NCBI GenBank assembly: GCA_019828565.1
Contig: JAHDYR010000035.1
Coordinates: 78,572 to 142,571 of the forward strand
From: Carpediemonas membranifera BICM
Taxonomy: Eukaryota; Protista; Fornicata
DNA: 64,000 nt
Direction of reading: 5' to 3'
Positions 34,235-64,000 of this stretch are shown one piece after another (the first letter of the stretch is position 1; each line of letters begins with the position of its first letter). Below the pieces are notes generated by a model, which worked only from the letters and a program-made list of their open reading frames with translations, was not told the DNA's origin and did no database searches. A program made the position numbers and the translations under genes.

Positions 34235-34255
34235 CAGCACAGCTAATACTAGTAT

Positions 34256-35846: not shown

Positions 35847-36186
35847 GCTAACTGTAGATAGAAGATATAGAAGATAAGAAGAGCACAATGTGTACAAATG
35901 AGTGTTAAACATAAGAACAGAAGCGAAGACAGAGACCAAAGAACCATTATGCCCAGTTGCAAAGTCAAGGTCATGTTGGAAAAACTAACGTCAGAAGAGG
36001 AGGGGCTGATGACCATATAGGGTCTATAGAACTCGGTAAGGGGAGTCTCAATTATATTTTGATTTTATGATGGCGGGATACATTAATTGGAGACTTCGAC
36101 TGTAGTCGACTAACAGTCGGCATATCATCGATATGTAAGCTATCACGCCTCGGGCGTGGCTCACGCCCTGACACTGCTGGGTCAGG

Positions 36187-38780
36187 GTGTGTCAGAACAG
36201 AAGGATTCCGGGGACACGAGAAAGATGGTCAAAATATTTTGAAAATCTCGAAAGACATGATTGTGGATACGGTCTTGATCCGTCCCGATCGCGAGCAGAT
36301 CGTATCCCTCCAGCAGAAACCGTGAGGATGGCCGAAGGCGACGCGGATAACGCTGATCCGCCGCCTGTCACCATGGAGAGCCTTGCTGAGCTCATACAAC
36401 AGCAGCAGAACGTCATTACGGCACTCCGTTCGGAGGTTTCATCGGTTAAGGACAGTACACGGGACCCGAGACGCCCGTCTCGGATAGGAGCCGTTGCTAA
36501 GGAGTACGACCACCTCCGCGAGACACTTGCCGACATCAGAGGTATCCTCAACAACCCGGAGATGACGCACGTCACCCAGATCGAAGCCGCGATCGAGGCG
36601 GTCTTCGAGCGCAGACTCGAGTTCCTACGGCTATATGACAGCCACTCCGACACCGCTGCGCGCTACTTCATGGCTATTTCGCGAGAAGAACGAGACCCGC
36701 AACGCTTCGTAGTGCTGGCCGCCAAGGCGGCCAAGACCACCCCACCGCCTCCTCGACCCAAGCGGTTCCAGAGAGGCTTCGGCGGCTTCAGCCGCAACTC
36801 TCCCCGCTTCAACAACAACAAACGTCGTGCCCCGGCAAGCGACCTCGGACCGGGGCGGGCCCAGTAGAGGCCAGAGAAGGGTTAAGCCTGAACCCGATGA
36901 CTATAAAAGGCTCGATATACTTCGAAGAGTTTGATTGCAATGGAAAGAGAAGAAGCACAAGAAGATCAGCAAGACACCTCCACCCCGTGTATACAGGGGC
37001 TGACGGGCTCGATGAGCCGTCGGTGGATGAGGTGGGAGGCCCTCGGGGCCAGCAGGGAGGTGGTGCAGCTGTTACGAGAGGGAGAAAGGTCACCCCGGCA
37101 GCACCGGCGCTCAATGCGCACCTCCAGAAGGAGACAGACACGATGAAGGCTCTACTAGAGGAGCTACTGCAACAGAAAGCAATAGAGAAGGGCGAGGCGA
37201 CGACAATATGCCCCCTGTTCACATTAGAGAAGAAGATCGCAGGCAGATACCGTCTGATACACGACCTGAGACCGGTCAATGCATACCAAGAGGACCTAAC
37301 ATTCAGGCTGAAGGGCCTAGCAGAGATACAGCATGGCGTTCCGAGAAACTCGTGGGGAATAACATTGGATATGAAGTCCGGGTACTACCAGCTCCTAGTG
37401 GAGGAGAACTCACGACAGGAACTCGGATTCTCGTTCGAGGGAGAACAATACAGATGGAGAGGACTCCCTTTTGGCCTTTCAACGGCGCCACGGCAGTTTC
37501 AGTCGGTTACGTCACAGATGGCGAAGATCTTGCGCTCACTTCTCGAAGGACTGATAATATACGTGTATCTGGACGATCTGCTCATAATCAGTCGCTCGAG
37601 AGAGTCGTTGAGCGCCCAGGTCCCACGGATCTTAGAGATCTTGGACTCACTTGGAGTCGTCCTATCGAGAGAGAAGTGCCACTTGACCCCGTCCCAGAGG
37701 GTAACTTACTTGGGCGTGATAGTCGACTTGCGCGAGATGACGATGTCGCTGCCAGAGGAGAAGAGGGCTCAGTACAGCAGACTCATAGCCAACCTGCAAC
37801 TCAAGAGACACACAAAGCGGGACCTTCAGACCCTTCACGGAAAGCTCCTCTTCTGCCGGTTCGCACTGGGGACGCGGGCACTTGTCCGGCTCAGAGAGCT
37901 GCAGGTCAGGATCGCTGGCTGCGACGGCCGAGTGCGGTACCCAAAGTCCAGCCTGCCCCAGGACCTACGAACGGGCCTGCGGTGGTGGGCCAGACAGCAA
38001 TCATCCGATCCGGCATGGTACTTCGGCCCAAGAGGCCAGGTACTTCGTATGGAGACCGACGCGTCGGACGATGCGTTCGGCGCGACGTTGTTTGTCGAAG
38101 ACACGTCCCTCAACATCCAGGGCAGGTTCTCAGAGGCACAATGCTCCAAGAGCATCAACGCGAAGGAGCTATGGGCAATGGAGGAAGGCCTGCGGAGATG
38201 GACGAGCGACATTCAGGAGAGGGACCTACTCCTGCCGGGGACAACACATCAGCGCTTTCATGGGTCCTGAAGTCAAGCACCAGAGCTCCCCGACACATCA
38301 GAAGGACGATTGTGGAGCTTCACGACTACTTGTTCGAGATTGGCTGCAGGATAAGAACCAAGCACATTCCAGGGAGATACAACACGACTGCCGACGGGCT
38401 GTCCAGGTACCGGAAGCTGGACTGGAACTCACCCGCGGCGATGCTCCAGAGCGCGCTGGAACGATGGGGGTCAGTAGACCGATCACTCTTCTGCGCGGAG
38501 AGATTCCTGCCGGAGGACCACGACTTCCAGACGGACGCATTTACACGCAATTGGTCAGAGATGAGGTCATTGGCGGTCCCACCAGTCAGCCTACTGGACA
38601 AGGTCATCGCCAGGGCGGAGGAGATCGCCACGTCAGACGAGACGCACCCCGCACTGCAGCAGAGAGGCCTATTAGTCATCGCACCACAGCGCAGGACGAA
38701 CTCCCCCGGCTCTCTTCCCCCCGGGCGCTCTCCCTGCCGCTCTCCTGCCGCTCTCCACCGCCGTTCTCCTCCCGGCGCTT
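36187..38780 (+). mobile_element. YR element 4: gag-like ORF (36187-36867) plus RT/RNase H/MT-like pol (about 36931-38780, frameshifted), truncated before the YR
   Basis: WEALGASREVV; RLIHDLRPVN, LDMKSGYYQ, LPFGL, VYLDD, ETDAS, AKEL; HIPGRYNTTADGLSR; DAFTRNW...AVPP. Confidence 0.9.
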
Positions 38781-38899
38781 GTTCCTTGGCCGCTCGCTCT
38801 CTATATTGAAGTTAAATGGTGTTTATTACTCCTATTGATGGTAATAAGGCCTCATCAGTGCTTCGCACGGCTAACAACTAACGCCACAAGCTGAAACTG

Positions 38900-43319: not shown

Positions 43320-46300
43320 GAAAGAAAGAAAATTTATGGTGCCTGGTATCGGGCCCCGGTTACTTAGGCTGATCTCCCTTATTACTGGAGCCGAGTTCCC
43401 CGGGGCGCTGCCTCCTCCCTGCGATTGAACTTGTCAGCTGCGTCCAACGAGCGATTCGGTGCTACTGCTTCCGCTCACTCCCGATTTCACTTCCCCCCAT
43501 AGGCCTTCGCCATCTCCGTGCGCTGCGCGCTTTCCTGTCTCCCTGTAAACCCGGCAGCTTCCAGGGAGCCTGGGGGTCTGTCCTCGGTGCTTCCACAGGC
43601 AGTTTTGTCCTGCAAGACCTTCTCTATAGCACTCCCTGATTCCCTGCAGTCCCTACGGGGTCGTTCAAGCATGGCACCCTCTCATCTTTCCAGATTCCCT
43701 GTTCAGTGCCCCCACGACCCTGTTAAGTGGCCTACCCGTGGGCGGGGAAAGCAACTAAGTCCCTCTCATCTACCCCTGTTAGGCGGCGTGGGCTAGGGCT
43801 AACACAGACTCTAGATCTGCAAGGCCTAGTACCCCTTATGATAGTTCTCTTGTGCTACACTTCCCAGCGTCCCTCTATCGTTCACAAGGGCGGCGGGGAC
43901 GTCATGTCCCCCGTATCCCATGCTCAGTCCCTGCAGTTTCCTTAGGTTCACCGCGAGTGGTGCAACCATCCAATTGATGGATTTCCTCTGTCCCTGGCCC
44001 TGCCCTCTCCCTGGGAAACATGGGGGGTCTCCCCTTGATCCCAGAGTCTATGCTTCCCTGCCCCCTTTCTGGATGTGGTGTTCCTTATCTATCCATCTAT
44101 TCTATAGCTATCATAGACCTTTGCCAGGGCTCTCAGCCCAGCTCGCAGTCCTTCCCATATCTCTTCCGACCCTGTTAACACTAGTTGTTGCACCTCTAAG
44201 ATTGGCCTCTTCTCATACCACCCATTCGGGCCTCTTCTGACTTGCAATTCCCTGGTCCTCTCCTTAGCTGTCTTCCATATCTTTTCCCAGTCATCTCCTC
44301 TTTCAACCTCTGGGCACTCACACATAATGTGGGCCGCCGATCCCAGCGGCTGACCCCTTACCCACTCCCTGATTAGTGCCTGCTTCCTGGCTTGGTTTGG
44401 CTGCTCTCTCGCTATTTGCCACAGTAACTCTATCTCGCTCTCCTTTGTGCACAGGGGGCACCTCCTTTGTATCTTGTGTTTGAGTTCCTCACCCATCGCC
44501 AGGTCCGCCAGCGCTCGCTCTGGGCCTTCTCCCCTTTCCGCTGATGATGGAGACGGGCTGACATTCGCTGCCACCGACACTATCCTTTTCCACTCTGCCC
44601 TTGACTGCCACTTCCCTGTCTTCCTACTTATGGCCGGTTTCCCCGCCATGCACTTTCCCATACGTTTGGGTCCTAGGACTTCCATGAGCCCCACCGCTGT
44701 CTTGCTCTTGCACCTCCTGGTCCAGTTCATTCTTACCATCTCCCTACCAAAGTCTATCTTCCCTGCATTCGTTGCTCCCTCTCTTGTTCCTCTGAGGAGT
44801 GCGTTCACTGAGTCCCTGGCTTTCCACATAATCGATCCCTCCTTCCAGACCCTGTCTCTGATTGGTATATCCTGGCCCCTGCTTGTCACGATCCTCTTGA
44901 CTGCTAGAATCTCCAGGTGGGCTTGCAGGTCCATCCATCCGTTCAAGATGCGCATGACCGAGCCCCCACCTGGGCCTGTTCCGGCCATGATGCCCTGCCA
45001 ATCCGTCCATATCTTGTTCCCCCCTGCTGCGTAGCCCCACACCTCCACTCCAAACATTATCCTCGGCCATATGTAAACTTCGAGGAGGATCCTGCTGGCT
45101 AGCGCCGGCATGTTGCCTCTGGTCCATCCCACTCTTCTCACTAGCTTCTTGTACCTTTCGCTCTGCTCCCGCTTCTTTCTGATACAGGCTGCCAGTGGGT
45201 CTTTTCCGCTGGCTATCCAGAGACCTAGGTACTTAGCTTCCTCTTTTGCCATTAGGGTAACTCCCCCCACTCTCGCCACTGCTGCCCTGTCTACACTGAT
45301 CATCTCACTCTTTTGTGCATTTGCCCTCATGAGGTGCTCCTTGATAACTTCTATGACTAGGTTCGCCACTATCTTACTCTTTTCCGGTGTCTCCCCTGTG
45401 ACCGCTGTATCGTCCACGAACATGGTTAGGGTGGCCGGCAGCGTGTCCCGGACTCTTGGTAACTCCGTTGGTGGTTCCCTGATATCGTACTCTTGTCCCT
45501 GATGCTTCTTCCTGACCAGGTGAGGCCAGTTTGCCATGAACAAAACGAACAGGGTCGGCGCTAGGACACATCCTTGCTTCACTCCCCTGTTTGTTCTCTC
45601 CCATGACCCTGCCCCCTTCACCGAGATCCATGTCTCTTCTAGTGTACTCTGTATTGCCCTGATGAGGTGGTCTTCGACCCCCATTCCCTGCAGCTTATCC
45701 ATGAGGATGTCCCTCGGGACGGTGTCATAGGCTTTCTCTATGTCTAGGAAGATCGACGTGGTCTCCCCCCCTTCCTGGTGTCTCTGCACGATGTATTGTA
45801 TCTGTTGTATTACGTCCTTATCCGATTGGAACCCCTGCTTGCTCTCTTGGGATGAGGTGCCATGTGGCTGCTTCTAATCTTCTCTTCAGGAGCCTACCAT
45901 ACACCCTATACAGTAGTGGTGTTAGCGAGATGGGTCTGTACGACTCCGGCTTCACTCTGGGCTTCCCTGTCTTGTGGATGGCCGAGACTGTAGCATACTT
46001 CCATGTTGTCGGGATCTTGCCCTCCCTGTATACCCTGTTCATGAGCCTAGTTATCTGAGCGATCCCCTGGTCATCTGTGTCCCTGAGCATGTCCCCTGTA
46101 GTGTGGTCCGGTCCCGGTGCAGTGTCCCTCTTTATCCTTCTGATCGCTTCTCGTATTTCTCTCTCCTTAAATTCGTCCTCCCTCTTTCCATTGCCTCTAT
46201 CCTTCCACTCCGGTTCCCTGCCCCTGCTCACTCCCTGCATACTGTTGTAGGAGGATCTTACCTATTTCTTCCTTGTTGGTGGTAATCTTCCCGTCCTTCA

Positions 46301-47478
46301 GTATGCTCTCTGGCATGCCCTTGAACTGGTTTTCACACCACCATCTTCTTACCGCTGCTTCCACCATGGACCTGGATGCTTTGTATCCTTCCTTCGCGCT
46401 CCCGCTGAGGTCCTGGATCCACTCTTCCCTGCGTTTTCCCCCAGAAGGCCTGTAGCTCACGCTTCATGATCTCACTTCTGGTCTTGTTTCCCTCTTCTGT
46501 CCATGGTGTGTGCCGGAGTTCCGACCACACCTTTTCTTTGATGACCTCTTCCCTGTCTCCACTGCCTGGGTGACCTGACGGCTCGCCCATATCCTTCCTG
46601 ATATCCTCCTCCCACTCATCCAGGCTCTTAAAACGGTGCAGTCTTCTGACTGATGTGCGTTCAGCCTTCTTCCTCATGTTCCACACTCTGACGCCCGGTA
46701 TGTCTAGGACTTCCTCTCTCTTTGTAGTCCGTTGGATCCGTTGTTCCCTCCATTCCAGTCTTATCATGTTGTGGGCTGACCCCCAGACTCCGAGTCGACT
46801 AGCATCCAGTACTTCTATCCTTGCTCCTCTGATCCCTGATGATACCAGCGCGAAGTCCGGAGTGGTAGTTCCCTTGGTGAGGGTACCTTCCATGGGGATC
46901 ACTGCTCCCAGCTTATAGTCCCTGATCAGGTCCTTCCATCTTGCCATTGTGGCTATCCTTCTGGGGTCGAGGTTCCAGTCCCCTATGATGATTGTTTCCA
47001 TCTCTCCTTTCATCTCCAGAATGCTCCTTATTCCGTCCCTGAACTCGTCCTTCTCCTCCCTTCCGTGGCCGACCGGTGGGCCATACACGTTGATCACCAG
47101 GATGTCCCTATGGGTTCTGAGTATGCTCACCTGTATCCTCCCTGATAAGCTATCTGTGATGCCTACGTCCCAGCTCCCTCTTGCTCTTGGGTTGATGATT
47201 GTGCCCACTCCTTCTCTAGTACCCCTCGTCCTGGGCGTCCGGCTACTGCTCCCTGCTATGCCCAGCTGGGCATCTATTCGGCGCTGGCTTTGGGCTTCTT
47301 TCTTCCTCCTCTCGTTGTCCATAGCAAGCTCCTCCTCTGTTTCCTTCCCTGCCATTGCGTAGTCGAAGTCTATGAAGTTGTGTACCCTCGTATTCGCCGT
47401 CCTCCACGTTTCTTGGATGCATACTGCATCTGTGTCGCTCAGTTTCATCCTTATAGCCGTTGCCATTGAGGCCGTGAA
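43320..47478 (-). mobile_element. LINE B: 5'-truncated copy of LINE A (ORF2, 3' UTR, TTTC tail)
   Basis: Near-identical to about 5596-9760. 16-bp TSD with one mismatch: GCCGACCACTGGACCA at 43304-43319 and GCCGAACACTGGACCA at 47479-47494. Confidence 0.96.
44089..47478 (-). CDS. LINE B ORF2 (APE-RT), frameshifted
   Basis: ORF pieces 46333-47487, 46197-46460, 45818-46240 and 44089-45789 match LINE A ORF2. Confidence 0.93.
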
Positions 47479-47505
47479 GCCGAACACTGGACCACTCCAG
47501 AGCAG

Positions 47506-49119
47506 GTGACGGCCACCCTGTGCGACCCAGCCCTCGTCCGGGCCCTTATGAACGAGTCCAACTGTGGGTCGGCCACGGGTCGATTCAGCCAGAGTCGGCT
47601 CCGGCAGCTCTGTGAGGCATTGAGGGGCTTTGTCCCCGAGACCGTCAGGTCGACACTGCCAGTCCTGCCCAACGGCGGTAGGATCTTCACCAAGCTGCCC
47701 CCGGTGGTTGCCAAAATCGCCCAGGCCTGCTTCGGGTCAGTCCCGCAGCGGGCGCCCCGGGTGACCTGGGCACCTGATGGGGCCGCGCGCCAGCGCAGTG
47801 TCCCCGAGCCGTTCTTGCCAGCTCACAGCGCCATGTTTGTGGGGAAGTTGCTCCCCACGAAGAGGGCCAGACTGGCATGGGCGAAGAGCTTTGTCGCGCT
47901 GCTCAATGAGTACGCCGCAGCCCCGGCCCACGGGAAGCCCGACGTTGTCCGCCGCATCTTGACCTTCGCGCAGGGTCTCTATGCTCCTCCGGAGCGGACC
48001 ACCGAGCAGCCCCGGCTGAAAGCCAGTGCGCGCGCACTCAGGTTGGGACAACGAGGCTTCTATTCTCGCGCCACGCAAGCTCTCTCCGCCGGAGAGTTCG
48101 CTGGGGATCGCGCGTGGGTGGAGGCCAGGCTCTGTGAGAGCCAGGTGCAGCCGTCTGGTAGTCGGCTGGCAGCAGTGTCGGGTCCCGCGTCCACACTGAA
48201 CCACTGCCAAATAACTGTCCCTGCGGTGAAGAAGGCACTTAAGAGCCTCAACGCCGAGTCCGCACCGGGTCCTTCAGGCCTATCTTACCTTCATCTGAAG
48301 GCGACGGGCCGGGCCATCGGGTGGAATGAACTCGCCGCGGCTCTTGTGCCCCTGCTCGAGGATATGCTCGAGGGCGTCGCCTGCCTGGAGCCATTTTCCC
48401 ACTGCATACTTGTGCCGATCCCGAAGAAGGATGGCAAGCCGCGCCCCGTCTCAATAGGCGACAGCCTTCGTCGTCTCGCAGCGAAGGTGGCAGTTCGTCA
48501 GGCTGCTGCCCGGCTGCAGGACGACAAGGCGTTGCCGGGTCAGTATGGCCTCGGCGAGAAGTGCGGGCTCAAGGAGCTAACCAATCTTGTGAGGGAGCAT
48601 CGTGGCGGCGGTCAGGTGATCGCTTTGGATCTTACCAACGCATATGGATGCATGAGTAGATCTCACCTTCGCGATGCGACAGCTGCATACTGCCCGTCGC
48701 TTTCCGAGTACCTCGAACTGATGTTGCTTAATCCAATGCTGTTCTCAGCAACCGGGATGGTCCTCAGATCACTCGAAGGAATTACGCAAGGAGATCCTAC
48801 GAGCCCGCTGCTGTTCAGTTGCGGCATGAAGCCCCTTTTGGACGATCTTCGGACCGAGTTTCCAAACTACGCATTTTATGCCTATCAGGATGATGTCTAC
48901 TGCCTGATGCCCAAGGACGCTACAGAGAGTGAGACGAACACGGTCATCATGACCGCGACGTCCAATTTCGCCAGAGTCGGGTTGAAGGTCAACGAGAAGA
49001 AGACTGTCATCGCCGGGCTGGGCCTAGTGGCCAGTGAATCCTCGCTTGCGCCGCGCGGCGAGGCTTTCAAGGTCCTGGGCACGCCGGTGGGGCCGGCTGC
49101 GTACGTCAAGGTGTTGTAA
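47506..49119 (+). CDS. CRE-clade reverse transcriptase (no RLE domain retained)
   Basis: SAPGPSG, LVPIPKKDGKPRPVSIGDSLRRL, QYGLG, LDLTNAYG, GITQGDPTSPLLF, AYQDD, GLKVNEKKT, VLGTPVG. Confidence 0.88.
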   Translation: MTATLCDPALVRALMNESNCGSATGRFSQSRLRQLCEALRGFVPETVRSTLPVLPNGGRIFTKLPPVVAKIAQACFGSVPQRAPRVTWAPDGAARQRSVPEPFLPAHSAMFVGKLLPTKRARLAWAKSFVALLNEYAAAPAHGKPDVVRRILTFAQGLYAPPERTTEQPRLKASARALRLGQRGFYSRATQALSAGEFAGDRAWVEARLCESQVQPSGSRLAAVSGPASTLNHCQITVPAVKKALKSLNAESAPGPSGLSYLHLKATGRAIGWNELAAALVPLLEDMLEGVACLEPFSHCILVPIPKKDGKPRPVSIGDSLRRLAAKVAVRQAAARLQDDKALPGQYGLGEKCGLKELTNLVREHRGGGQVIALDLTNAYGCMSRSHLRDATAAYCPSLSEYLELMLLNPMLFSATGMVLRSLEGITQGDPTSPLLFSCGMKPLLDDLRTEFPNYAFYAYQDDVYCLMPKDATESETNTVIMTATSNFARVGLKVNEKKTVIAGLGLVASESSLAPRGEAFKVLGTPVGPAAYVKVL

Positions 49120-49343: not shown

Positions 49344-49949
49344 CACTGAATGGGTCTTAACCTGCACGACCCAGCGATGAGTCGAAAAGAAGGAGGAGGC
49401 GAAGGACGAAAAAAAAATGGAAAGGGTGTACTCGATATGCCCTTGCAGCGGCCTACCTCCACCTCCTGTCTGAGGTCTGAGTACTTCGTGTGGTGGCCGA
49501 AACACGAGTCGATGGCGAAAGAGTGAACGGGGAAGATGATCGCAACGAGAGCTGAACCCGAGGGAAATGGGGAGATATATAAAGGTGATTGTACTGCTGT
49601 AGCACTAGGTTCTCACGGGCATTGGTTCCCCCGCAATGCGCAAAAATTTGGAATCAATCGATTAACTGGGGAGGTTTGGACCGAAATTCCCCGCAAAAGA
49701 GGTGTAACAAGCATGTGTAGAGCGATATTGGGCGGAAGAATTACTTCCTGGAGGGTAATTGAGCATAATTGGCTGCTCGCCGATTGAGTTGCCTAATACT
49801 GCGGCTAGGACCGGGCCCGCCACCTGCGACGAATACGAGCCAGAGTCGGCTCTAGTGCAGGGTTCTCGCGCAAATATTGGTCTAGGGCCTCCAGCTGGTC
49901 GGTGTCTCTGGTAAAACTAATCCAAGAGTCTTCGCTCGGCTCGTAGCCC

Positions 49950-52900
49950 AGCACACGGCGGGGTGCTATCACTGCGCACTGGCGGACAGCACACTGTTCG
50001 CAATCAGAGTTCTAGCACTGTTCAGAGGCACCAACGGCATCGGTGAGTTAGAGGACGCCCTCAGACTGCTGCAGCCAGCCATTGAGGAAGAGGTCAGAGC
50101 AGCCAGAGAAAGCAGTGACATCGTAGCAGGGCTGGGGTTCCAGCCGAGGCACACAGCGTTCCAGGAGTTTGGCCCCCACCCAGCGTTCAGAGAGATCAGA
50201 GACGGGCACCAGGGCAACAGGTTCCTCGTAGTGCCAGACAGAGAACACAGGTTCGGCATTGGCTTCGGATTTGCAGAGGTAGCGATGGGGATGAAGGGCC
50301 TGCTCCTATCCCCTGACGCCTTCACTGACAGAGACAACAGAGTCACTAGGAACCCTATCTGGACACTGGAAGAGGAGCTAGACAACCCAGAGCAACTCAG
50401 AGCGGTCCAGGGCCGAGCCGGCCTTGGAGCGCACAACGAAGAGAACATGGTCACACTGTCACAGCTCGTCAACTGGTGGCCCAGCAGAGAGCGCATCGCC
50501 CGGCAAGAGACCACGACAGAGAGGTGGGTCACCAAGTTGACAGAGAGGCCAGACGGTCGGTCGACCAGGAAGTCAGGCGCCCTACTGGCAGAGAGATCGG
50601 ACATCCCACCCACAGAGAAGCCATACACCTGGCCGACAGAGAGGCCAGACGTCCGGCTGACTATGAGGTCAGACGCCCCATCGCCAGAGAAGCTGACCAA
50701 CCCACCGAAAGAGACATCAGACACCCTGACGACAGAGAGGCTGGGCGCCTCATCGACAGAGAAATCAGACGTCCTGAAATCTATGAACGCGACACGGAGC
50801 TCGAACGTCTGGAAGCCAGGGCCAACAGAGCAGAACAGGACGGTCTCCGGATCAGACCCGACTTCGAAGAGGCAGAGAGGCGCCAGCGGGAGAGAAACGA
50901 GTGGTTTAGAGAACATCTTGGAACAGCCAGAGACAACCGCAGAGGCAACCACTCCTCAGCAGCCGGCAAGCGAGGCAGCCAAGGCAGAGACGACCTATCC
51001 GAGTCAGGAAAGAGGAGCAGACACAGTGATGACACCGCTGGGACGGTAAGAAGCAGACTACCAGACCAGCAGGACGCCGAGAAACAGAGGCTCCTACTTC
51101 AACTGGCAGAGGCACAGCGAGAAATCTCAGCCCTCAAGGCCGCCCGGCAGAGACCCGCAGACCTGGCAGGCACTGAACCCGACCCCCTTGTCAGACCACC
51201 GATTGAGATGGTCAAGAACAGAGACGCCGCGGTAGTGCCCCGTCGCAGGAACAAGAGCAGGAGAACCAGGACCACCAGACAGATGGACCCCATGGAGATG
51301 ATGACACAGTTCATGTCCTTCATGGCCAACATGCAAGGTGGTCAGGCCCGCGACCCTGAACCGTATGATGATGCCAGTGAAAGTGAGGTCTCGGAGGAGT
51401 AAGTGGATCAGAGATAAAGCAGTATTCTTTCAGAAACTAGTGTATCAGACTTTCTTTCTTTATATAACCCTGGCTCCCACCCAGGGCCTGGCATTAGCCC
51501 ACGGGCACTGCCAGTAGGTTGCAGGCGGCAGCCAAAGGGGGTCACGCCACTGCGCCCCCTCCTAAGTATCCATGCCCGAGGGCGAATCGGTCACCAAGAA
51601 GCACGGAGGCTGGCCCGCCAAGGGTTACCAAGACCGGCATCGAGGCCCCTTGACGGGACAGAGACACAGTGAACCCTTAGCCCCTGCAGAAATTCTCAGA
51701 ATTCGCAGGATAAGGATCAGAGCATAGTACAACATGGAAACGTTCAAGATCTTAAGCCTGAACACTCAGGGGCACATAGGACGAGGAAAGGACTTCACGG
51801 CATCAATAGCAACAGCAATTCAAACCAAACTCAGAGACATTGAAGCGGTTTGTATACAAGAGACATGGAGAACAGCAAACACAAGAGTCCACAGCTTCAT
51901 AGACTTCCAGTACGCTTTAGCAGGCAGAGAAACAGAGGAAACACTAGCAACAACGAACGAAAAGCGGAAAAGAGAGACCAGGTGCCAGCATCGCGTGAAC
52001 AGACAACTGGGAATCACAGGTGACGACCCCCTACACCCAAGTGGCACGGGACCAGAGAAGGCATCGGCACAATCGTAAGCCCGCATGCCAGAGCAACATG
52101 GGATGTCGGCATCACTGACAGCCTGTCAGGAAGAGTGCAGGCGAGTATTATGAGGACGAGCAGAGACATCATGGTAATCACAGTGTATGCACCCACTTCA
52201 GATAAAGGGAAGACAGTGAAAGATCAGTTCAGAGACAACATCCAAGAGATACTGGACATGAAAGGGGACATGGAAGCAATCATCATTGGGGACTGGAACA
52301 TGGCCCCAGGGCCGGCACACGGAACCACCAGGTGGAAGGATGTTATGGACAAACACAAACTCAGAGCAATCATACCAGAGAGGGGCACATTATCCAGTGG
52401 CAACACCACACCGGACTTCGCAATGGTCTCAGAGGGAATCAGGAAAGCAGAGATTCAAGTGGTCAGCTCGACAGTGCTGGGAGTATGGGGGTCGGCCCAC
52501 GAAGGGGTCAAGCTTGCCTGGGAAAAACCCCGATACAGAGCCAACAGAGACGATGACAGTGGCCTGGAAATGCCAGGAGTGCACACATGGAATATGAAAG
52601 GGAGGGAGGGCCACACAACAATCAAGGAGCTAGACAGAAACGGATCGATAGATCAGTGGGAGGAGACAATCAGAGCCTGCCTGGGGGAACCAGCCGGGGA
52701 GAAGAGAGCCAAGCCACGAGAGCAGATAGTACAAGACAGCGCATGGGCCGACCTCCATGAAACAGAATGGTCAGAAGCAGGCAACAAGGTGAGGACGAGA
52801 CTAATGAACAGCGAACTGAAGAAGTACTGGGACAAACGCAGAGAAGAGTGGATAGCCGACCTCAGCAAGAGCACAAGAGAGGGATACAAAGCATCGAGAT

Positions 52901-53090
52901 CAATGGTAGAGGCTGCAGTCAGAAGATGGTGGTGCGACAACCAGTACAAAGGGATGCCTGGCAGCCTGCTCAAGGACGGAATGATCACCACGGACAAGGC
53001 CACGATCAGCGAAATCCTGCTTAAGCAGTACGCGAAGGTAAGTAGAGGCAGAGAACCAGAGTGGAAGGAGTGGCCTGGCATAGCAGTTGA
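49950..53090 (+). mobile_element. LINE C: internal fragment of a sister family of LINE A (ORF1 C-half, inter-ORF RNA, APE part of ORF2)
   Basis: Starts at HTAGCYHCALADSTLF (about 49952-50000); ORF1 pieces 50231-51049 and 50476-51402; ORF2 51734-53112 (SLNTQG, CIQET, GDWN, WGSAH), strongly similar to LINE A. Confidence 0.9.
51468..51733 (+). promoter_or_regulatory. Conserved structured inter-ORF RNA element of LINE C
   Basis: Aligns with 5284-5536; stem CCGGCA/TGCCGG becomes CTGGCA/TGCCAG. Confidence 0.65.
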
Positions 53091-55629
53091 AATGTCCGGT
53101 ATGGGAAGTTGACGAAACCAACCGGAAAAAGGCCAAAAGCTGGCAATCGGGATTTATCGGATCTCATTGAAAGCTATTCGAGCTCGAAGCGAGCGACGGT
53201 GCCCCGCGGCGCCAGCATCCACCAAATGGTAATTTCAGGACCAAGAGTTCGTCTGCTCTGGGGCACGAGAGCAGAAATGGGAAGTATTCTCCTAACCCAC
53301 TAGCCATAGGGCACATTGGGGAAGCAAATTGCTCCCCGGAGGAGATCGTCCGTTGCGAAGCAGGTTAGCGCCAGAGCGGGCCGGCAGAGGACAACTGGCT
53401 GCTCCAGGTGAGGTGATGCGCACCTCACCTGGAGCCCACTCCCCTGCCCTGTATACCTCGCCGTGCGCCAAGCTATGTCGAGCAACAGATGATCGTCCTC
53501 GTGTGCCCAAAAATGCACAGAGGCAAAAACCACCCAAAAGGGAATAAGTTAGCCTCGGTAGGAAAGCGTTGACAGAATACACAGTACTCTAACAACAAAC
53601 AAAACCTACCGCCCATGCTCCTGGGACCCACAAGGGGACCAGACGCAACTAAACGCTCCTCGCACAAACCCACAAGGGAAATCAACGCGAACAAGCGTAC
53701 TGCGCCACCTTTATGATTGAAACCCCTACCGTAACCGGTACCCGCAGTAGGCCCCAGAGGCACTGCGACACGATTGCCTCAGACAACTTAACTGGGGCCA
53801 TATGGCAAAGTAACCCGAGAGCACCGGGACCGGCGGCCAATAGGCTCTCACTGGGAGGCCACTGGGCCACACTACTCCGGCGCCCGTGCTCTCATGCCGC
53901 CCAAGACCGGGCTTGTGGACGTCATCGCCACGAGAGCCGGGATCGCCGCCCGCCGCCGGCATAGGCAACAGGGCCACCACAACAGGCCCCCAGTACACCA
54001 GCCATACCGGACAACAGACCGGGAGCGCTGAGAGAGCTGCGCATATGTACATCCCGTCAGCAGTCTGCAAAATCACTCTGGTACCGATTCCAACGTGTAG
54101 ATTTCGAGATATTGCTCGTTTCATCCTTTTGCCTTAACCTGCGTCGCAAAGAAGTCGAAATCAGTGGTTAGACCGCACTGGACCTCTTGCAGGCTCTCTG
54201 CATACGCGCTTTAGTATGCAATGAAGGTATTCACTTTCCCGTAAATTGTTTAAATTCAATGAATACTTCATTTTCGGTCCGGAAGAAATAGATAATCTAG
54301 GGTTTTTAGGCCCTAGATTATCTAGAAAAAATCGTAGATTATCTGCCGACTTTCACAGTATGACCGGGCTGCGACCACAAGATACAGGACGAGGGGCGTG
54401 AATGGCAACCAGCTGGTGCAGCCGGGCGTCTATGCGAGCACGAAGGCGCTTATAGACCCGCATTTGGCCCCTCAGCTCAGCGTCGAAACCCCGAGCCGAC
54501 TTAGACTCGTGGGGACTCAGGTCCTCGTCACGGTAATTCTGAGCCAGGTAGGAAAAGGCAGCGGCACGCTCCCGCCACCGGCTGGCCAGGACGTCCACCT
54601 GGGCAAAATCGTCAGCTATGGTCCGCAGGAAATGCGCCTCCCAACCCCGAGGAGTCGCCGGGCCAGGAGTCGGGGATTCCCGAGAAGGAGCGGTGAAGCC
54701 CCTGCCGCCACAAGGCAAGGGACTACCCTGGGGCCCGGAGGGGAATATGGGATCCCCCGTCGGAGTGCGAAGAGGGCCCTGCTTCCCGGGAAAGAGGCGG
54801 CGCCCCCGAAATCGGAGTCCAGGCCGTACTCGGGCCAAGGACTCGATAGGGATCGGAGTGCATAACCCCTGGTAATGCACCTCCCCCTCTGGGGACCGCT
54901 GGGCAGCGGAGGCGCCGGCCGAATGGCCAGGAGGAGGCGTGAAGGTGGAAGGAGAGATGGAACGGACGCATGGGGAATAAGGGACAGCAGCCCCGTGTGG
55001 GGCGATGCTCCCTGTCCCTGCAATAAGGTTCCCTTTTGGGTTTTCGCCAGACATGTTTTTGTGTGGAAACAAGGTCCGCAACAAACCTCGCATACCTCGC
55101 CCCTGAACCATCCGCCCTGAGGAAGGGAAAGGAGCCATACAAGACCAGGACATCGCTGGCTGGCGCCCCTTGGAACCTCCACCAGACCTCCTCAAGCCCC
55201 TCCAAGAAGCTGGCAAAAGTGCACTTCCCGCCTTTTGCCACTCCAAATGGAAACAGGGGAATATCCCAACAGGGACATGCCAGATAGGGAAGAAAGCATG
55301 ATTTATGGCTTATTCGCCCTTAAGGCTGCACCCAGAAGGGATCTCAGGAAAACCAGAAGGGAAAAAAGCAAATACGTCCATTATCCAGCTCGGCAACGCG
55401 ATAGGATACGACAAGATTGTAGACCCAGAACAGGGAAGCTTTTACAGCAAAGGAAGGCCCAGGGGAGCTCCGGAAAAGCCGGGCCAAGAAGCTGTTTGCA
55501 TCACTTCCCCTCCTGAGACGGTACACAAAAGCCGCCCAACAGCCATACTGGCTATTCATTGAAGGGAACCGGCTGGACCTAGAGCAGGCGGAGACACTAA
55601 GCCGGCTTCGCCCAGGGTCCCCCAAATTT

Positions 55630-58600
55630 GTGTTCTACCCCAGAGTCCAGGCGGACTACTCCAAGTACGTAGCACATCCCCACCGGACGAGCCAGACGGC
55701 ACCAGCTAGTGAGCAACACACCCCATCACTTCTCCCCGTGGAGGAGGGCCTTGATCTCGGCCGAATCCATAACCGGGACTTTTTCGAGACCACGCCACAC
55801 AATGACCTCGAACAGCTCCCCAAAGCGTCCCAGACGCCTTGGATTGCGCAAACACCACCCCCAAATGGGATCAAGGAGTCGTTAACGCCACTGGGCAAGC
55901 AACTGGCCACACCGGACGAATGGGACTGCATCAGAGCCTCAGCAGATGCGGCTATTCCCACAAGGGACGTTGCCATGGTCTTCACCAGAGATGACGCAAC
56001 GGACTTCACTGCCCGAACGGGAAAGGTCGCAAGGACGCTCCTCCTAGAGCTCGTGGCAACATCGCTGCAAGCTGCAGGACATTCTTCGATCTCAGGCAAC
56101 GGCATCCAGACCAAGTACGGGATGGAGGCTGCAATGTGGCTCCTCCATGCCGCCGGACACGCCATCTCCGCGGGAGCTGCAGCCAGAGGGCTCCCCCTCA
56201 CTAGGACGCGAAAACAAGAAGCTCTGGGCCGACCTAGGCTGGGAACTAGCCAAAGGGCAAGGCTACCACGCCCCCTCACCCCCCCGGAGGGAGGTTTCCG
56301 CAGACCAGACGGCACGCCCATCCAGATCTGGACCCAGGGCCCCGTCGAGGAGATCCTCATCTACAGCAGAACCGAGGGTGTGATGAGGCCAGTCTTCCCA
56401 CCCCCACCCCCTGGAAGAAGAGCCTTCGGCAGCAGAGGCAGACCTGAGGGAGGAGGTCAGAGACCTCATCCAACGGTGGTCAGTCCCCGGCTTCCCCGAA
56501 CTCTGGTCGGCATGGGATAAGACCAGGCGTCTCTGGCCCCCACCCGCGAGGATTGCCCGCGAACTGGTGTCTGCCTCCTTTCTGACGCGCAACATCACTA
56601 ACTACTGGCTCACAACGGGGCAGACCCAAGTTATAGAGCCCGTACGGGACGGGGCATCTCATGGAGCCCTGGGTACTAACGAAGAAGAAACCCCCTGGGC
56701 CCGAGCGGCAGCAGGACTTCCGGCCCTGATGACACACCCACCACGCCAAACAAGGGCACATGCGGGCCCAGCATGGGAGCTAGCCCGCCTCGTTCCAATA
56801 TCACCCAACGAGCCAACACCACCAGGCAGTTGATCGCTATGGTGGACTTTGAGGAAGGAAGAGCCAGATCCAACCAAGGAGACGAGGCCATCATTTGCGA
56901 AGGGGCGGCACTGATTTTCGACCCAGCCAACGAGCAAATCCTCTACTACATGCACGGGATGCTTGGGGAAGACATCACAGTGGATGCCCTGGACCAATGT
57001 CTGTGGGCCACGCACTACATCCATGGCTGCCCACCAGCTACGTTTGTCGACGTCACCACGGGCAAAGCCCCCCAAGGGATACGAAGCAGACTTCCCCCAC
57101 GCCAAGCGATGGTGCACCGAGATGGCTACAGAGCTGAAGAGACTGGAAGACGACTCGGGGCCACAGAAGACCCACGTCCACATCGTGGCTAAGGGAGTCG
57201 AGGCTGAGAGAAGCATCCTGACCAGTGAGAAGTTCGTCCCAGACGGGAACCTCCGCACCTGGCTAAGCTTACGCCTCATGGATGAAACTGACCTCAACAC
57301 GATCTTCCCCAACATCCTCGACACGCTGACCTGGTTCTACCCCCAATAGTGGGGAGAAGAGCCTCACCGGCCTCCCCTCCCGACCCCAGTCCGAACTGGG
57401 CCGGACCTGGACCAGAAGGTACCAACAGCGCCCGGAGGCAAAAAGTGGCGTGCCCCTATCACAAGCACGCACCCCACCACTGCCACTGCGCCCTAGCAGA
57501 TGTCTCCATATTCTACGCCAGACTAGCAACAGCGTTCTGGATGAGAGACAACCCAGGCTGGGACTGGGGGCAGGTAGAAGCCCACCCTCACAGCCCTAGG
57601 AAGCATGCTCATGGGCAGGGAGTCGCCGTACCATGATGAATACAAGGACCTGGCGACCAAAGTCAACGCCAGACACGGCCCCGGCACCGTGGCGGCCGGT
57701 CGCCTAACCCCATTGTCCCAACAAGTCAACCTCTTTGGCACCAAGAACCCCAAACGGGGCCAGATTATCATGACCAACTGGGAGGAAAACGATTTCAGCT
57801 CCGGAAAGGGTATCACCAGAGCCCTGGAAGGAACAGCCGTGATCATCGGAAACCCAGAATCGCTCGCGAGAGTAGGCGAACTAGCGCGACCCATCCTCCT
57901 GGAAATCCACTCGGAGTGGAACGGGCGCCGCCGCGCTGTCCAAGACGGTTTCCCTTGGGCGAACCTGAGGGCGGAGCCCACGGAAATAGACGCGGAAAAG
58001 ATGCTTACTCTAGACGTCAGCGACACCAAAAGGATGACCCTATCCCAAGCGGCGTCTTTGATGCCCGTCCACAAATTCGACATAGCTGGAGGCCACATGG
58101 GCAGAGAAGCCAGGAAGAAGATCTTCAACTACTTCACGGAGGTCCCAGCCGACGATCGAGAACTCCTGGCCAACATGTGTGTCGACCCGGAGACAGGCTC
58201 CATCAACTTCCTCCCCTCGTTCCTCCCCCGGGACTGGGGTATCACGGATGAACCAGCAGAAAGAGGGAAGAGGCGAGTGGGCACCTTGAGGAGCGCCTCC
58301 TGGATAGGCAAACTCGCCCTGGCGGGCTCAGGCGTGGAACACCCAAAAGGGGGGAAGCCATGGGACACGCTGAACTGTGTTTTCCCGGAAGGCGCCAGCA
58401 CTAACGCCAAGAACAGACTGAGGACCGAGAGGAAGCAGGCGCTTCGAACAAAGGTGAGACGAAGGGCTACTGAACTCGCCAAGATGCTCCACAGGAGGAC
58501 GGAGGTCTACATGCCGAATGGCGGCATAGGGGGCCTATATGGCCCTCCACGCGGGCAAATTGTCACTGAACAACCGCAAAGTAGCAGGACAGAGCGAACA

Positions 58601-59100
58601 GAGCCCGGGCCCCCTCCAACTAAGAGCTGTGCCCCCCCCCATACCCCCCAACCCATCAGCCAAGACCCGCCAGGTCAGACAGGTGGACCAAGAGGACCTG
58701 CAGCCCAAAAAGAGCACGACAGGAGGACACCGACCTGGGCAGAGGCATAGCGGCCCTGCTGGACCAAGCCATGGCCCGGCGAGAAGCAGAGGTCAGACAA
58801 CAGCTGGAAGAAGCTGCAGCCAGAACCATCAACGAGCTCAAGGCCAAAAAGCCAGGAGCTGGAGGAAGAACGGGAAGCCCGGAGAGCAGCCCAAGCTGCG
58901 TTGGACGAGATGCGGAAGGACCTCAGGAAGACAACGGAGAAGTGCTCGTCTCTAACCGAAGAGAACGAGGACTTACTCAGCCGCGCGGCCCGACTCTCGG
59001 CAACCAACGAAGCCCCTCAGCTTCACCCCTAGCAGCCAAGATGGATAACTTCAGGTCTGACCTGAGAAGGAAGAGAGACGAGGAGAAGGAAGGAGAGTAG
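55630..59100 (+). pseudogene. LINE D ORF1 (frameshifted); DEDDh/Maelstrom-like domain at about 56830-57530
   Basis: MVDFEE...ICEGA...HGCPPATFVDVTTG (ORF 56773-57192); AKGVEAE (56963-57349); ACPYHKH...HCALAD (57349-57636). Confidence 0.75.
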
Positions 59101-59274
59101 AAACAATCATAAGTAAGAGGTGCAGAGGGTAGTGTGATATAAGTCTGAGCTAAAAGTACATATATGAACCAGCATGTATGGCCAGGCTGTGACTAGTAGG
59201 GCCTTAAAGTCCAAATGGACACCGGCGAACCATTCCGGCGGGAGCAAAAATGCAACACATTCTTTTTCAACAAA

Positions 59275-59673
59275 CCCCTGTGCTCCCACAGGGGCCGGGG
59301 GCAGGGTTACCAAAAGGTAAAAAGAGCCCTGCCTGTCCGGCAGGCTGTAAATCCAGCCTTGGGAGGGGCAACAACCACTGTCGCTCCCACCTAAGCTCGT
59401 TAGGTAATGGTTCTGCCATGCGGCGAGGAAGGAAGCTAAGCGGAGACCGGCAGCAATGCCGACAAGCATCGTGAGGCCCCGACTGTGAAAGGGAATGGTA
59501 TGCCCTAGGCCGGGAACTAAGGGAATACAGGCACAAGCCTGCCCAAAAGGAAACGACTGCTCGGTTAGAGGCCTCAGCAACCCACCAAAAGGTACGCCCA
59601 AAAAGGGAATGTCTACAAAGAGCAGATTAGTGCGCGCAGGGTAACTCCCGCAGTTTATGTCAGAACAACCTGA
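59275..59673 (+). promoter_or_regulatory. Structured inter-ORF RNA element of LINE D
   Basis: CCCCTGTG/CACAGGGG, CCGG...CCGG, AGGCTG/CAGCCT, GGGAG/CTCCC then CCTAAG: same hairpin order as in A and C. Confidence 0.5.
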
Positions 59674-62600
59674 ATGAGAATAATATCGCTAAACAGCGAA
59701 GGGCACCTAGCGGGCGCAAACGATTACAGCGGATCCATAGCTTTATCCATCCGCAAGAGGATAAGGACTGATGCGATCCTCCTCCAGGAAACCAAGCGGT
59801 ACGGTAATACCACCATCCCTTGCTGGGTAGATCTCCAGTACGCCTGTGCAGGAGAGGTCAAGCCATTAGAGGCAACGCGCAAGCGACCCACAAAGGGACT
59901 GGCCACACTGATTAGCCCGCAATCCAAAGCGGAATGGGACGTAGGCGTGTCCGACGGGACGAACCCACGAATCCAAGTAAGCATCCTCAAAGCATCGAGG
60001 GCCACGGCAGTCATCAATATCTACGCTCCCGATAGTGGATGTGCACGACCCGAGATTGAGGGAGTTCGACCGGATGCTAGAGCAAACCGTCGCGAACTAT
60101 GAGGGGTGTGACATCATCATCATCGGGGACTGGAACAGGAGGCCAGGGAAACTCAGGCAAGCAACTGCGATGACCCTCCAGCGATGGAACCTCACCCCAA
60201 TAGCACCAACTGCACTGACGTACGGGACTAACTCCCGAACGTCCACAATAGACTATGCAGCGGTAACAGGGGGTATCCAAAACCCGGTTGTTAGGGTAAT
60301 AGACAAGACCACAATCGGGCACTGGGGGTCGGCACACAAAAGCCATAGAGCTCACCTGGGATAGCAACCCGACAGGGAAACCAGAGATATCAAAGAGACT
60401 GGAAATCCCACGGATCGATACGTGGCTGGTCAAACCCAGGAGAACAGGGCCCAAGCTAGAAGAGTGGCCACCACTAGACAGCAAAAATACCAGTGGACGA
60501 GATGGAGACTCTCATAAGGAAATGGTTGTCCACCGGGTTTGCTACCTCCAGAAGGCACCCATTCGCTGTAGAAAACCAGGAACGTATCCCTAGTGAGGTA
60601 TGGGAACGGCTGGCCAAAGCCTCCACCTGGAGCAAAAACCGCCGCCAAAGATATCAAAAAGTCCCTCAACGGAGCACTGAGCAGATCATGGAGGACCTTC
60701 CAACATGACTGGAATGAGCAGGTTGAGGTTGGATCCCGTGATGGGTACAAAACGACAAAAAGGATCCTCGCAAACCAAGTGTTCCGCTTCTGGAACGAGA
60801 AGCAGCACGCCGGTCTCCCGGTGATGCTGAAGGCTGGAAACAAGATTCTAGCAAGGCAGAGGGAGATTGCAGACTCCCTCCAGGAGCAGTACGCGAAGGT
60901 AAGCTCCGGGAAGGAACCCACCTGGGAACCCACCTGGGAAACCGAGCCGGAAACGGACATGGAGGACCATCCGCCATCGCTTGAAGAAGTGACAGCGGCG
61001 GTCAAGTCCATAAGGAAGTCCTCGGCCGGAGGCCCGGACGGGATTATTGGAGATTGTCTGAGGGACCTCCCCCGAGTCAGCGTACGAGGCAATCACAGTC
61101 CTGCTCGCGAAAGTATACGACAGCGGGACCATGCCAACCACATGGAAGTATGCAGCGGTGTCGCCTATCCACAAGGTTGGGAAGGACAAGCTCACGCCCA
61201 GCTCGTACAGACCGATCTCCCCTCACCCCCTCCCTATACAGAGCCTACGGGAGGATACTGAAATGGCGCCTCAGGCCGACGGTGGAGAAGTTCATCCCCA
61301 GAGAGCAAGTTGGGTTCATGAAAGGGAAAACTGTAGTGGATCACATAGCCCTCCTAGCCCAACTCCACCAGTCCGGAAACCGTACCAGCGTCCTACTTGA
61401 CATAGCAAAAGCATATGATACGGTCCCAAGGGACCTGCTGGTGAACAAGTTGACGCTCATGGGGGTACACCCAAGACTGACGAGGGCCATCCGAAATACA
61501 CTTACAGAAACGTACATCTCGGTACGAGGGGCAAGCACATGGTCCAGAACAAACATGGGGGTCAAGCAAGGATGTGTGGTGGCCCCCACTCTGTTCATTC
61601 TCTTCACAGCTAACTGGCTAAGCCAGGCGGCACTGTACCTCCGGCATAGAGAGATCCCGGACCCCTGCCTCCCTCCAACGGACGATAGGCCCAAAAACTG
61701 CCCTCATTGCAATGTTTGTAGATGATACAAGCATCTCAGCCGAGACCCCGCAGCTCGCCGAAGAAGGCACAGACGCAGTGGTCAGGGTAATTGAAGCCCA
61801 TGGACTCCAGACCAGCCCAGGCAAAAGTGTGGTGATAAGTACCGACGTAACTGCAGCGGTCAGCATCCAAGGAACTCCCACACTGGCGTCAGACTCAGCA
61901 AGGTATCTGGGACTCTGGCTAGCCAGCGGGAAGAATCCGTTGGCAGCATGCATCAAAAATGAAGACGTCACAATCCCGGAAATACCTAGCCCTGGCAAGG
62001 AGAGCAGGGTGGACCAAAGGATCCACCCCGGCCGCCACCTCGGAATCCATCCTCAGAACCTTCCTCTGGCCCAAGATCGAGTTCGGGATCGAGATCTGGG
62101 GCCAAGCGCTCAGGGGAAGAGCCATCTGGAACAACTGGCGCGGCCTAATGGCAGGCACAGGACCAGGGGGAGGAGGAGCCGCCCGTGTACTAATGGGATG
62201 GATGTGCTGGGAGGCAGATATGGGGGCAGAGAGCGGGGAGGCTCTATGAGTCTGCGCACGACCCGGACCGTCCGACCCCCCTAGGGAATCTGGACTGGGC
62301 GACAGCGGAGAGAGGGATCGGTCTTACATCGCCTCTACCAATGGCGACGGAGCGTCCTCCAGGGCACACAGGGAGGAGATTCCCGCCAGGGAAAGAGCAA
62401 AGAGGGGAGGCTGGACCCCTCACAGCAGAAGAACTACTGCACACCGGGAGCCGAACGGCCAAAGGGGTGGCAACAGTACTAGCCCCGGAAGTCATCCTCA
62501 GCATGCAGCAAGGGAAGAGACCCAAGAAACCAGGAATGATCAAGGGGTGAGATGATAACCAGACGGGAAGTCAAGAGAGTAATCATGACTGCATCCAACA

Positions 62601-63058
62601 CACTCCCCTCCCCAGCAACAGTGGCAGAAGCAGAGCCATACTTGGGAGCGCGATCGGCCAGCCCCCAGGCCCTCCTGAGCAGGATCAAGCGGTGTTGCCC
62701 CCTATGTACCCTGGACTCAGAAGGTGACACCATTACTCGCCTGTACACTGTCACCAGAACCGCGGCGGAAACCACCAAAATCCTCTCAGAATGGGCATAC
62801 AACCAGCCCCTGGGAACACAAAGCCACATCATCTGCCAATGCAAGGCGGTAGAACGCCCAGAAGGATGGAATGACATCCTGGCGGAGGCGCATCTACGCA
62901 CACAGTACCACGCCCTAAGGCAAGGGCAGGAGGCGGAGTGGTACAACTCAAGGGCAATCCTGGAAATGCTCTGGCTCCTCCGCAGCGAGGACCATACCGT
63001 CAGAGAGGGACTGCAGAACGGCAGACGTGCCCTTCTGAACCTCCGGAAAGACGGGTAA
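59674..63058 (+). pseudogene. LINE D ORF2 (APE-RT-CCHC), many frameshifts
   Basis: SLNSEG, LLQET, INIYAP, GDWN, TIDY, WGSAH; GGPDG, YRPIS, LDIAKAYD, GVKQG, FVDD. Confidence 0.9.
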
Positions 63059-64000
63059 GTACACCATCCCAGAATCCTATGACCTCTGGGACCAGGGGTC
63101 AAACTGGGACCCAACCCCCGCCCTCAACCGAAGCGGGAGCGCTCCTGGGATCAGCGGGGACGCAAGCCCCACGTATCCCGGTAGCACCCAGCCGCGGAAG
63201 GGGGACTCAACCCCGAACACTAATCTCGCTAACATACAAACGCTCACCCATACTGGGAACGTAGACAACATTCAGCCGGCAGAACCGGCACACTCTTCAC
63301 ACGTATAAGAAATAACCCAGAGCCATAGGGCGGGGCACGTATGCACATGTATACACGTACGTGCGAGGTATCGGGGGCGCAGCAGCCAAACAGGAGGGTA
63401 ACCATAAGGCAACAATACCACCTGGGCGGCACCTGGACCAAATCAGAGCTGCGCCGAACGGCCCGGCACCCAAAACTTGGAACCAGCCGGAAGCTAGGGA
63501 AGAAGCCCTATAGGGAACAAATCCTTGAGGAGGGGATCCATGCCGAAACGGAAAGTGTGGAAGAGCCCGAACGCAGCCGTGAATCATATAGCTACCCAGC
63601 GATGATCGGTGGGTTTCATAACTGGCCCAATTGCGTGGTACGGCAAACGCCAAGCCCGAAACCGCTTCGGCGGGTGCCTGAAAAATTGCAAACTGGGTCG
63701 AATGGTATGGAGAACATATCCCTGAGAGGAGCCCTGTAGGGGAAACCGAGCAGAAGGCCCCGAGTGGCGGGTGTGCAGAACTGAGGCCTTGCGGTGCCAG
63801 GCAAATTGAGCCGAAGGACAAGAGTAAGACCTGGGTTGCGGTGGTGGATTCTGCTGCGGGCCCAGCTAATAATATCCCGTGAAAATTGCTTCCTATTAAT
63901 CAAATACCCCAAGCTCTTTCTTCTGCCAAAACCTAACTAACTACTACGTCCTTCATATAATACGCCGCTCACCCTAAAATTAACTTATAATAGCGCGTAG

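Follow-up and report, generated by a model that had tools for sequence, protein, structure and literature searches.

The ORF1 proteins of long interspersed elements (LINEs; ORF, open reading frame) are known to act as RNA chaperones, and few kinds of added enzyme domain occur in them (esterase, PHD). A zinc site made up of Glu-Cys-His-Cys (ECHC) has been described for Maelstrom (MAEL) and for the exonuclease (ExoN) of the arenavirus nucleoprotein (NP). Arenaviral ExoN suppresses innate signalling. Entamoeba MAEL, in which both motifs are present, degrades RNA with Mg or Mn (PMC4408791), and the trypanosome protein RIF4 is described in the available part of its report (PMC3359990) as preferring double-stranded RNA (dsRNA) and as required for RNA interference (RNAi). 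A domain of this type is present in ORF1 of LINE D in the protist Carpediemonas membranifera BICM (assembly GCA_019828565.1, contig JAHDYR010000035.1, positions 78,572–142,571 of the forward strand). This stretch of 64,000 nt is termed the window, and positions below are those within it. The domain is at 56830–57530 on the + strand, consists of about 230 residues in four segments, and is predicted from its residues and a structural model to be a zinc-stabilised DEDDh 3'-5' exoribonuclease of the Maelstrom/arenavirus-NP type. Sequence comparisons support the interpretation that it was inherited with the LINE lineage and do not agree with a single recent capture.

LINE A, another copy in the window, has an unbroken ORF1 frame (2190–4259) with the nuclease domain at 3198–3899 on the + strand. 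With this ORF1 as the tblastn query, residues 310–493 match LINE D at 56731–57295 (E = 6e-14) and residues 535–562 match 57442–57525 (E = 8e-5). A frameshift-aware alignment with four reference domains shows that the LINE D domain is continuous from 56830 to about 57530, with four segments in three frames, three +1 frameshifts, no in-frame stops and identities of 31–36% to the reference domains. The motifs are VDFEE (56842–56856), ICEG (56893–56904), HGCPP (57022–57036), AKGVEAE (57188–57208), LRLMD (57269–57283), CPYH (57451–57462) and HCHCALAD (57478–57501), all on the + strand. An earlier note, made from the letters of this DNA, had placed such motifs at this site in three reading frames, and the coordinates, tblastn and the alignment confirm the placement. 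It had also asked whether the alignment outside HCALAD is better than chance. In comparisons of six homologues with three LINE D pieces, the score was reached by 0/1000 shuffles in 18 of 18 cases (z 6.7–30.8). A profile of 13 relatives that contains no LINE D sequence, although one row (P0013) belongs to a D-like family, matches the LINE D pieces at E values of 1e-27, 1e-14, 3e-9 and 0.47 among 1,478 six-frame segments, where the best unrelated segment has an E value of 2.6. The similarity of LINE D is therefore real and is not restricted to HCALAD.

The predicted catalytic and zinc residues are conserved across nine full domains, LINE D among them. The ExoI motif D-x-E (56845–56853), on model strand 1, has Asp in eight and Glu in all nine. 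The Glu on strand 2 (56899–56901; model strand 25–35), the predicted first zinc ligand and the E of ECHC, is present in 9/9. A Glu after strand 4 (57206–57208) is the inferred ExoII acid of a DEED type; it corresponds to LINE A residue 128, follows model strand 116–121 at the start of model helix 126–133, and is Glu and never Asp in nine of nine aligned rows. The predicted zinc ligands C-x2-H-x8-C (57451–57501) overlap the ExoIII motif H-x4-D, which is present in every full domain. The complete set of catalytic residues is kept in eight of the nine, at identities of 23–79%. The ECHC residues and their spacing equal those of Bombyx Maelstrom (E137, C290, H293 and C302), where E137 is on beta-2 and the other ligands are part of C290-H293-C302-R306 (PMC4408791). 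When model range 1–233 is aligned to Bombyx Maelstrom 112–321, C214 would fall on C302 provided that the stretch has no gap. A six-residue set, EHHCHC, is given in the available part of PMC2628886; its E, C, H and C are invariant here, and the two additional His are kept in LINE D and vary in the relatives. A zinc site at E-C-H-C is predicted from residues and fold. The term nuclease in the earlier note holds for the fold and the residues, while activity itself is predicted.

The modelled copy is the LINE A nuclease (3198–3899), from which the fold of LINE D is taken. The model displays a DnaQ-like RNase H fold, as in DEDDh 3'-5' exonucleases. Folding of the domain without an alignment gave a pLDDT of 37, and that model was not used in the fold search. 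The DEDDh plus ECHC residue set is that of the arenavirus NP exonuclease, whose structural Z score is lower than that of MAEL or ERI1. The best E value of an arenavirus nucleoprotein among PDB sequences is 1.6, with no Pfam match, and its feature score of 0.87 is a lead only. Neither Pfam nor NCBIfam has a family that matches the nuclease domain, and no HMG box is found among the Pfam matches of the window ORFs and the 13 relatives. With the LINE A domain as query against PDB sequences, phmmer gave nothing beyond weak RAG1 matches (E = 0.06); these were rejected as chance, as the fold search points elsewhere. DEDDh enzymes that act on DNA are at most 1–2 Z units below the top structural match, which is consistent with a domain that acts on DNA at insertion, on 3' flaps or mispaired primer ends, as do TREX1, RNase T or DnaQ. 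This is quite improbable, since the ECHC-type enzymes in the cited papers act on RNA and the domain is located in ORF1, apart from the endonuclease and reverse transcriptase.

Compared with MAEL, especially the active protist forms (Entamoeba EHI_192630 and trypanosome RIF4), the LINE domain has the same DEDDh fold, the strand-2 Glu, a C-x2-H-x8-C that runs into the last catalytic position, and retained catalytic residues. It differs from MAEL in that it is within a retrotransposon ORF1 and not a host gene, has 7–11% identity to solved MAEL domains, has no Pfam Maelstrom match or detected HMG box, and has Glu as its inferred ExoII residue. The lack of an HMG box match and the kept catalytic residues also separate it from animal Maelstrom. 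The exonuclease of the arenavirus nucleoprotein is C-terminal, whereas the LINE nuclease is central in ORF1. ERI1/3'hExo, ERI2, ERI3, RNase T and DnaQ are not among the enzymes for which the ECHC site is described. Exonuclease ORFs of bdelloid LTR/Athena elements, as far as the available part of PMC5408684 describes them, are likewise 3'-5' exonucleases of retroelements, with a DEED variant and, in two families, Cys-His-Cys. These exonucleases belong to the DEDDy, RNase D-like kind, are encoded by additional ORFs that stand alone in long terminal repeat (LTR)/Penelope-like elements, and were gained more than once, while the LINE nuclease is DEDDh, lies within a non-LTR ORF1 and is present in every family with an ORF1 seen. 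The same part of that paper describes an SGNH esterase in ORF1 of CR1, L2 and RTEX LINEs; there too the ORF1 position holds both an enzyme domain and a coiled coil, and the enzyme is unrelated. No report of a Maelstrom/DEDD-type nuclease in a LINE was found in the open literature searched (subscription papers and repeat databases lay outside its scope), nor in the available parts of bioRxiv 10.64898/2026.05.21.726589 and PMC2628886. With a Maelstrom-type nuclease throughout a LINE lineage, the architecture of its ORF1 would be a new one. The LINE nucleases add a third group to the ECHC exonucleases beside Maelstrom and the arenavirus nucleoprotein, and this bears on the origin of both.

A phmmer search of 1.84 billion representatives gave 13 related proteins at E ≤ 0.001. 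A profile search of longer proteins (7,993 candidates scored) gave seven matches, two of them new, and a word-index search of proteins of 128–410 aa gave none among 2,571 candidates. P0001 is labelled Carpediemonas membranifera and is 99% identical to LINE A ORF1. Also labelled as this organism are P0002, P0003, P0004, P0007, P0009, P0013 (the D-like family), P0014, P0015 (a complete copy of family C, 479/483 identical to the window's LINE C) and P0018. P0005, P0006, P0008, P0010, P0011, P0012 and P0017 are from contigs of 3.8–12 kb. No relatives above the thresholds were found beyond C. membranifera and these contigs. In a scan of metagenome contigs, three of 111 pattern matches were confirmed (L001, L002 and L003, the last of which stops within the domain); none of 30 matches in viral contigs was. 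Database entries of the LINE proteins read 'hypothetical protein' or carry a wrong name, and Pfam overlooks these proteins. The deposited name of P0001, 'Splicing factor U2AF', is apparently a mis-annotation. Clusters of look-alike proteins (150–250 aa, mostly arthropod where taxa are recorded) have language-model feature scores of 0.87–0.92; they are unexplained leads that could represent further ECHC-type nucleases.

The elements are APE-type non-LTR retrotransposons. LINE A is a whole unit at 1521–9760 (+ strand), flanked by 19-bp target-site duplications (1502–1520 and 9761–9779) and with a (CTTT)n tail. The 19-bp sequence occurs twice in the whole window, with both ORFs between the two copies. 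Together with the tail this shows that ORF1, spacer and ORF2 have moved as a single unit. LINE D ORF2 (59674–63058, + strand) encodes an APE endonuclease, a reverse transcriptase and a C-terminal Cys/His motif, and has 13 frameshifts and no stop. Pfam matches are Exo_endo_phos_2 (E = 6.5e-4) and RVT_1 (E = 2.6e-19; LINE A, E = 1e-31), and identity to LINE A ORF2 is 41% over 1,078 columns. LINE C is missing its 5' part, and of its nuclease the last motif alone is left (49949–50035, + strand). LINE B (43320–47479, − strand) is a 5'-truncated copy of LINE A (99.4%) without ORF1, with an A-type tail and a 10-bp target-site duplication. The order ORF1, spacer and ORF2 is common to LINEs A, C and D. 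L001 and L002 have an intact ORF1 of 1129 and 1233 aa, respectively, and 0.3–0.4 kb downstream in the same orientation an endonuclease ORF of ORF2 type, which is homologous to the window ORF2 (pairwise E = 9e-15 and 6e-22; Pfam misses both pieces). Another A-type ORF1 (P0014) and an ORF2 start (P0020) have consecutive locus tags on one contig. Of 7,993 candidates scored in a search with ORF2, three were listed as matches with E ≤ 1e-20. No long terminal repeats are seen: the longest direct repeat in 53,000–64,000 is 34 nt, and a self-comparison shows none around LINE A.

These data bear on the possibility that a host gene or separate element, placed next to the LINE by chance or in a single recent capture, accounts for the ORF. 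In its favour, the spacer opens with a T/C tract that resembles the element's tail. No target-site duplication of LINE D itself was found, a 9-bp repeat (53600 and 63927) being within chance, and the evidence for ORF2 linkage comes from sequences other than P0010, P0011, P0017, P0008, P0012 and four C. membranifera fragments. This possibility is opposed by the 19-bp duplication that spans both ORFs of LINE A, the same ORF order in LINEs A, C and D and in L001 and L002, the consecutive tags of P0014 and P0020, and the agreement of the trees of both domains. It is very improbable and can be considered largely refuted.

For the trees the endonuclease was used instead of the reverse transcriptase because LINE C, L001 and L002 stop before the latter. 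Nuclease identities are 52% (A–C), 30% (A–D), 33% (C–D) and 34% (D–L001 and D–L002); the corresponding endonuclease values are 62% (A–C), 37% (A–D), 27% (D–L001) and 32% (D–L002). Both domains give ((A,C),D,(L001,L002)) as the best of the 15 five-taxon trees. The endonuclease rejects the other 14 and the nuclease rejects 13, with a D+L002 alternative remaining. The comparison is a thin one, with five taxa and no root, and kinship alone gives such agreement. The earlier note considered the domain an old component of the clade and not a one-off capture. This is borne out by LINE D, which is as distant from A and C (30–33%) as from L001 and L002, which belong to another assembly, and the comparison it had proposed of the nuclease and ORF2 trees, with the endonuclease in place of the reverse transcriptase, gives the same best tree.

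LINE D ORF1 extends over about 3.2 kb, from about 55.86 to 59.10 kb with an approximate start, and not over 3.5 kb or more as had been noted. Its order is an N-terminal block, a linker, the nuclease, a conserved block, a low-complexity stretch and a charged helical end. The N-terminal region (55864–56680, + strand, start approximate) matches P0013 by tblastn at E = 3e-37. Its similarity to A-type N-termini is marginal (hhalign E = 0.0017; 18 of 300 shuffles as good), and the P0013 block compares with A-type families at 1/300 shuffles. The block after the nuclease (57700–58250, + strand; about 180 residues) ends in F-L-P-R-D-W-G and has no Pfam family. The families share it by homology: hhalign gives E = 2e-6 over 160 columns, and its 25.4 bits were reached by 0/300 shuffles, of which the best had 3.8, though the E value is only 0.047 with a long profile. 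The description of ORF1 as otherwise dissimilar is therefore not upheld, and from this homology the whole ORF1, not the nuclease alone, looks inherited. The C-terminal charged helical stretch (58700–59100, + strand; stop at 59098–59100) is frameshifted and is likely a coiled coil; the C-ends of the relatives P0005, P0010 and P0011 weakly match coiled-coil families.

The three frameshifts in the nuclease are 0–8 nt from a C6 run (57068–57073), a C5 run (57340–57344) and an A5 run (57440–57444), in that order on the + strand. Nine of the 13 frameshifts in LINE D ORF2 are no more than 6 nt away from a run of at least four (background 0.234, P = 6e-4). Under neutral decay with an assumed 5–10 substitutions per indel, 3.5–7 stops would be expected, and the probability of none is 0.03–0.001 (0.12 at a ratio of 3). 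Between LINEs A and B there are 14 substitutions and eight indels, every one of the indels in G runs. The frame breaks of LINE D are likely assembly errors, with true slippage as the alternative, and the element looks less decayed than its letters read.

The domain is probably an active RNase. This Mg/Mn-dependent activity is suggested because D-E-E-H-D is intact and protist MAEL proteins are active. L1 ORF1p is an RNA-coating oligomer formed via a coiled coil. By analogy, the C-terminal coiled coil would oligomerise the ORF1 protein on the element RNA, and the coat would bring the RNase to that RNA. The enzyme would degrade dsRNA or small-RNA duplexes from element transcripts, and this would blunt host RNA silencing and protect the element RNA. 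A counter-silencing role is possible, with somewhat less than even confidence, and the ORF1 nuclease is a direct candidate for a retrotransposon-encoded counter-silencing enzyme of a type that hosts use against transposons. The broader proposal, that LINEs of free-living metamonads captured an active Maelstrom ancestor into the ORF1 coat protein as a silencing suppressor, is tentative and, taken whole, somewhat unlikely. If true, the domain would be the retrotransposon counterpart of the arenavirus NP exonuclease and a third home of ECHC beside host genes and RNA viruses.

Several points weigh against the reading as a Maelstrom-type, counter-silencing exoribonuclease. In the structure comparison Maelstrom is no better than tied with ERI1, ERI2, DinG-exo and RNase T. 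The Pfam Maelstrom model gives no match at E ≤ 5 among the domain sequences or at E ≤ 0.5 among the full proteins, 13 of each; the link to Maelstrom therefore rests on the zinc motif. P0002 is without the first Asp and the fragment P0007 is without the catalytic His. A literature search for RNAi in the host organism gave no report. Conservation over so long a divergence would suit a core role in replication as much as an arms-race gene, and an RNase packaged with the element's own RNA would need a safeguard.

The two losses in P0002 and P0007 would also suit a domain whose main part in the ORF1 coat is structural, as an RNA-binding module in place of an RRM or zinc knuckle and with weak or incidental catalysis, as in animal Maelstrom. 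Pfam finds neither an RRM nor a zinc knuckle in the window ORF1 pieces or the 13 relatives, and Bombyx MAEL binds single-stranded RNA and does not cut it (PMC4408791). This is unlikely, in that the catalytic set is complete in nearly all full domains in spite of their divergence, whereas inactive animal MAEL has lost residues (PMC4408791). A further explanation for the proposed RNase is that it trims the read-through 3' flank or host-added tails of its own transcript to (CUUU)n and so fixes the start of target-primed reverse transcription. The 3' ends of LINEs A and B are at one and the same position, where a short (CTTT)n tail abuts the target-site duplication with no poly(A) or carried flank. 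The 3'-end trimming enzyme ERI1/3'hExo is tied as the best structural match, and retention at about 30% identity suits a core function. The 3' ends seen are two that are 99.4% identical, however, microsatellite-tailed LINEs without an exonuclease are common, and enzymes that serve reverse transcription are usually encoded by ORF2. Trimming is a fairly unlikely role, and the counter-silencing role is preferred.

The spacer between the ORFs of LINE D (59260–59673, + strand) consists of a T/C tract and GC-rich hairpins. The hairpins are in the same order in LINEs A, C and D, and the corresponding spacers are at 5263–5536 (A), 51452–51733 (C), 5232–5600 (L001) and 6312–6700 (L002). An RNAalifold structure of three spacer sequences has 57 pairs, 18 of which are changed on both sides. 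Single-strand z values are −0.6 (A), −2.5 (D) and −0.7 (L001), and Rfam gives no matches at E ≤ 1 in 54–64 kb, the LINE D spacer included. The spacer may be a signal that serves translation of ORF2 or processing of the RNA. Between LINEs A and D, alignment of the 5' and 3' untranslated regions does not rise above the shuffle level.

Most LINEs have Y-A-D-D at the reverse transcriptase catalytic motif. In ORF2 of LINEs A (5537–8983) and D (59674–63058) the motif is F-V-D-D, and ORF2 ends with C-x2-C...H-x3-C. The end of LINE A ORF1 is replaced at 4662–5150 (− strand) by a piece related to ORFs of DIRS-like elements. The related ORFs are beside tyrosine-recombinase genes at 22052–22285 and 26128–26310 (E = 2e-15 and 3e-6). 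In the other genomic copies P0001 and P0014, ORF1 continues where LINE A carries this piece.

Other mobile elements are present in the window. Several DIRS-like elements with overlapping frames (reverse transcriptase, an RNase H-like part and a tyrosine-recombinase-like ORF) are recognised from translations at 19587–30060 and 35244–38838. Pieces of Ty3/gypsy-type LTR elements (protease, reverse transcriptase, RNase H, integrase and a chromodomain-like end) are at 17044–18771 (+) and 30119–34267 (−), and the terminal repeat of a gypsy-type element could be represented by a direct repeat of 83 nt (29978 and 34255). A distinct reverse-transcriptase ORF at 47470–49119 (−) adjoins the 5' end of LINE B and resembles site-specific non-LTR elements. 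The sole Rfam match in the window is a tRNA gene at 23527–23597 (−; 56 bits), beside a DIRS-like element. Two ORFs, at 13435–16023 (+, 862 aa) and 10192–11850 (+, 552 aa), match no Pfam family at curated cut-offs; the 862-aa ORF is rich in Cys/His pairs and may encode a DNA transposase. In L002, a fragment of a DDE_3 (Tc1/mariner-type) transposase is upstream of the LINE at 3–386 (+; E = 1e-9).
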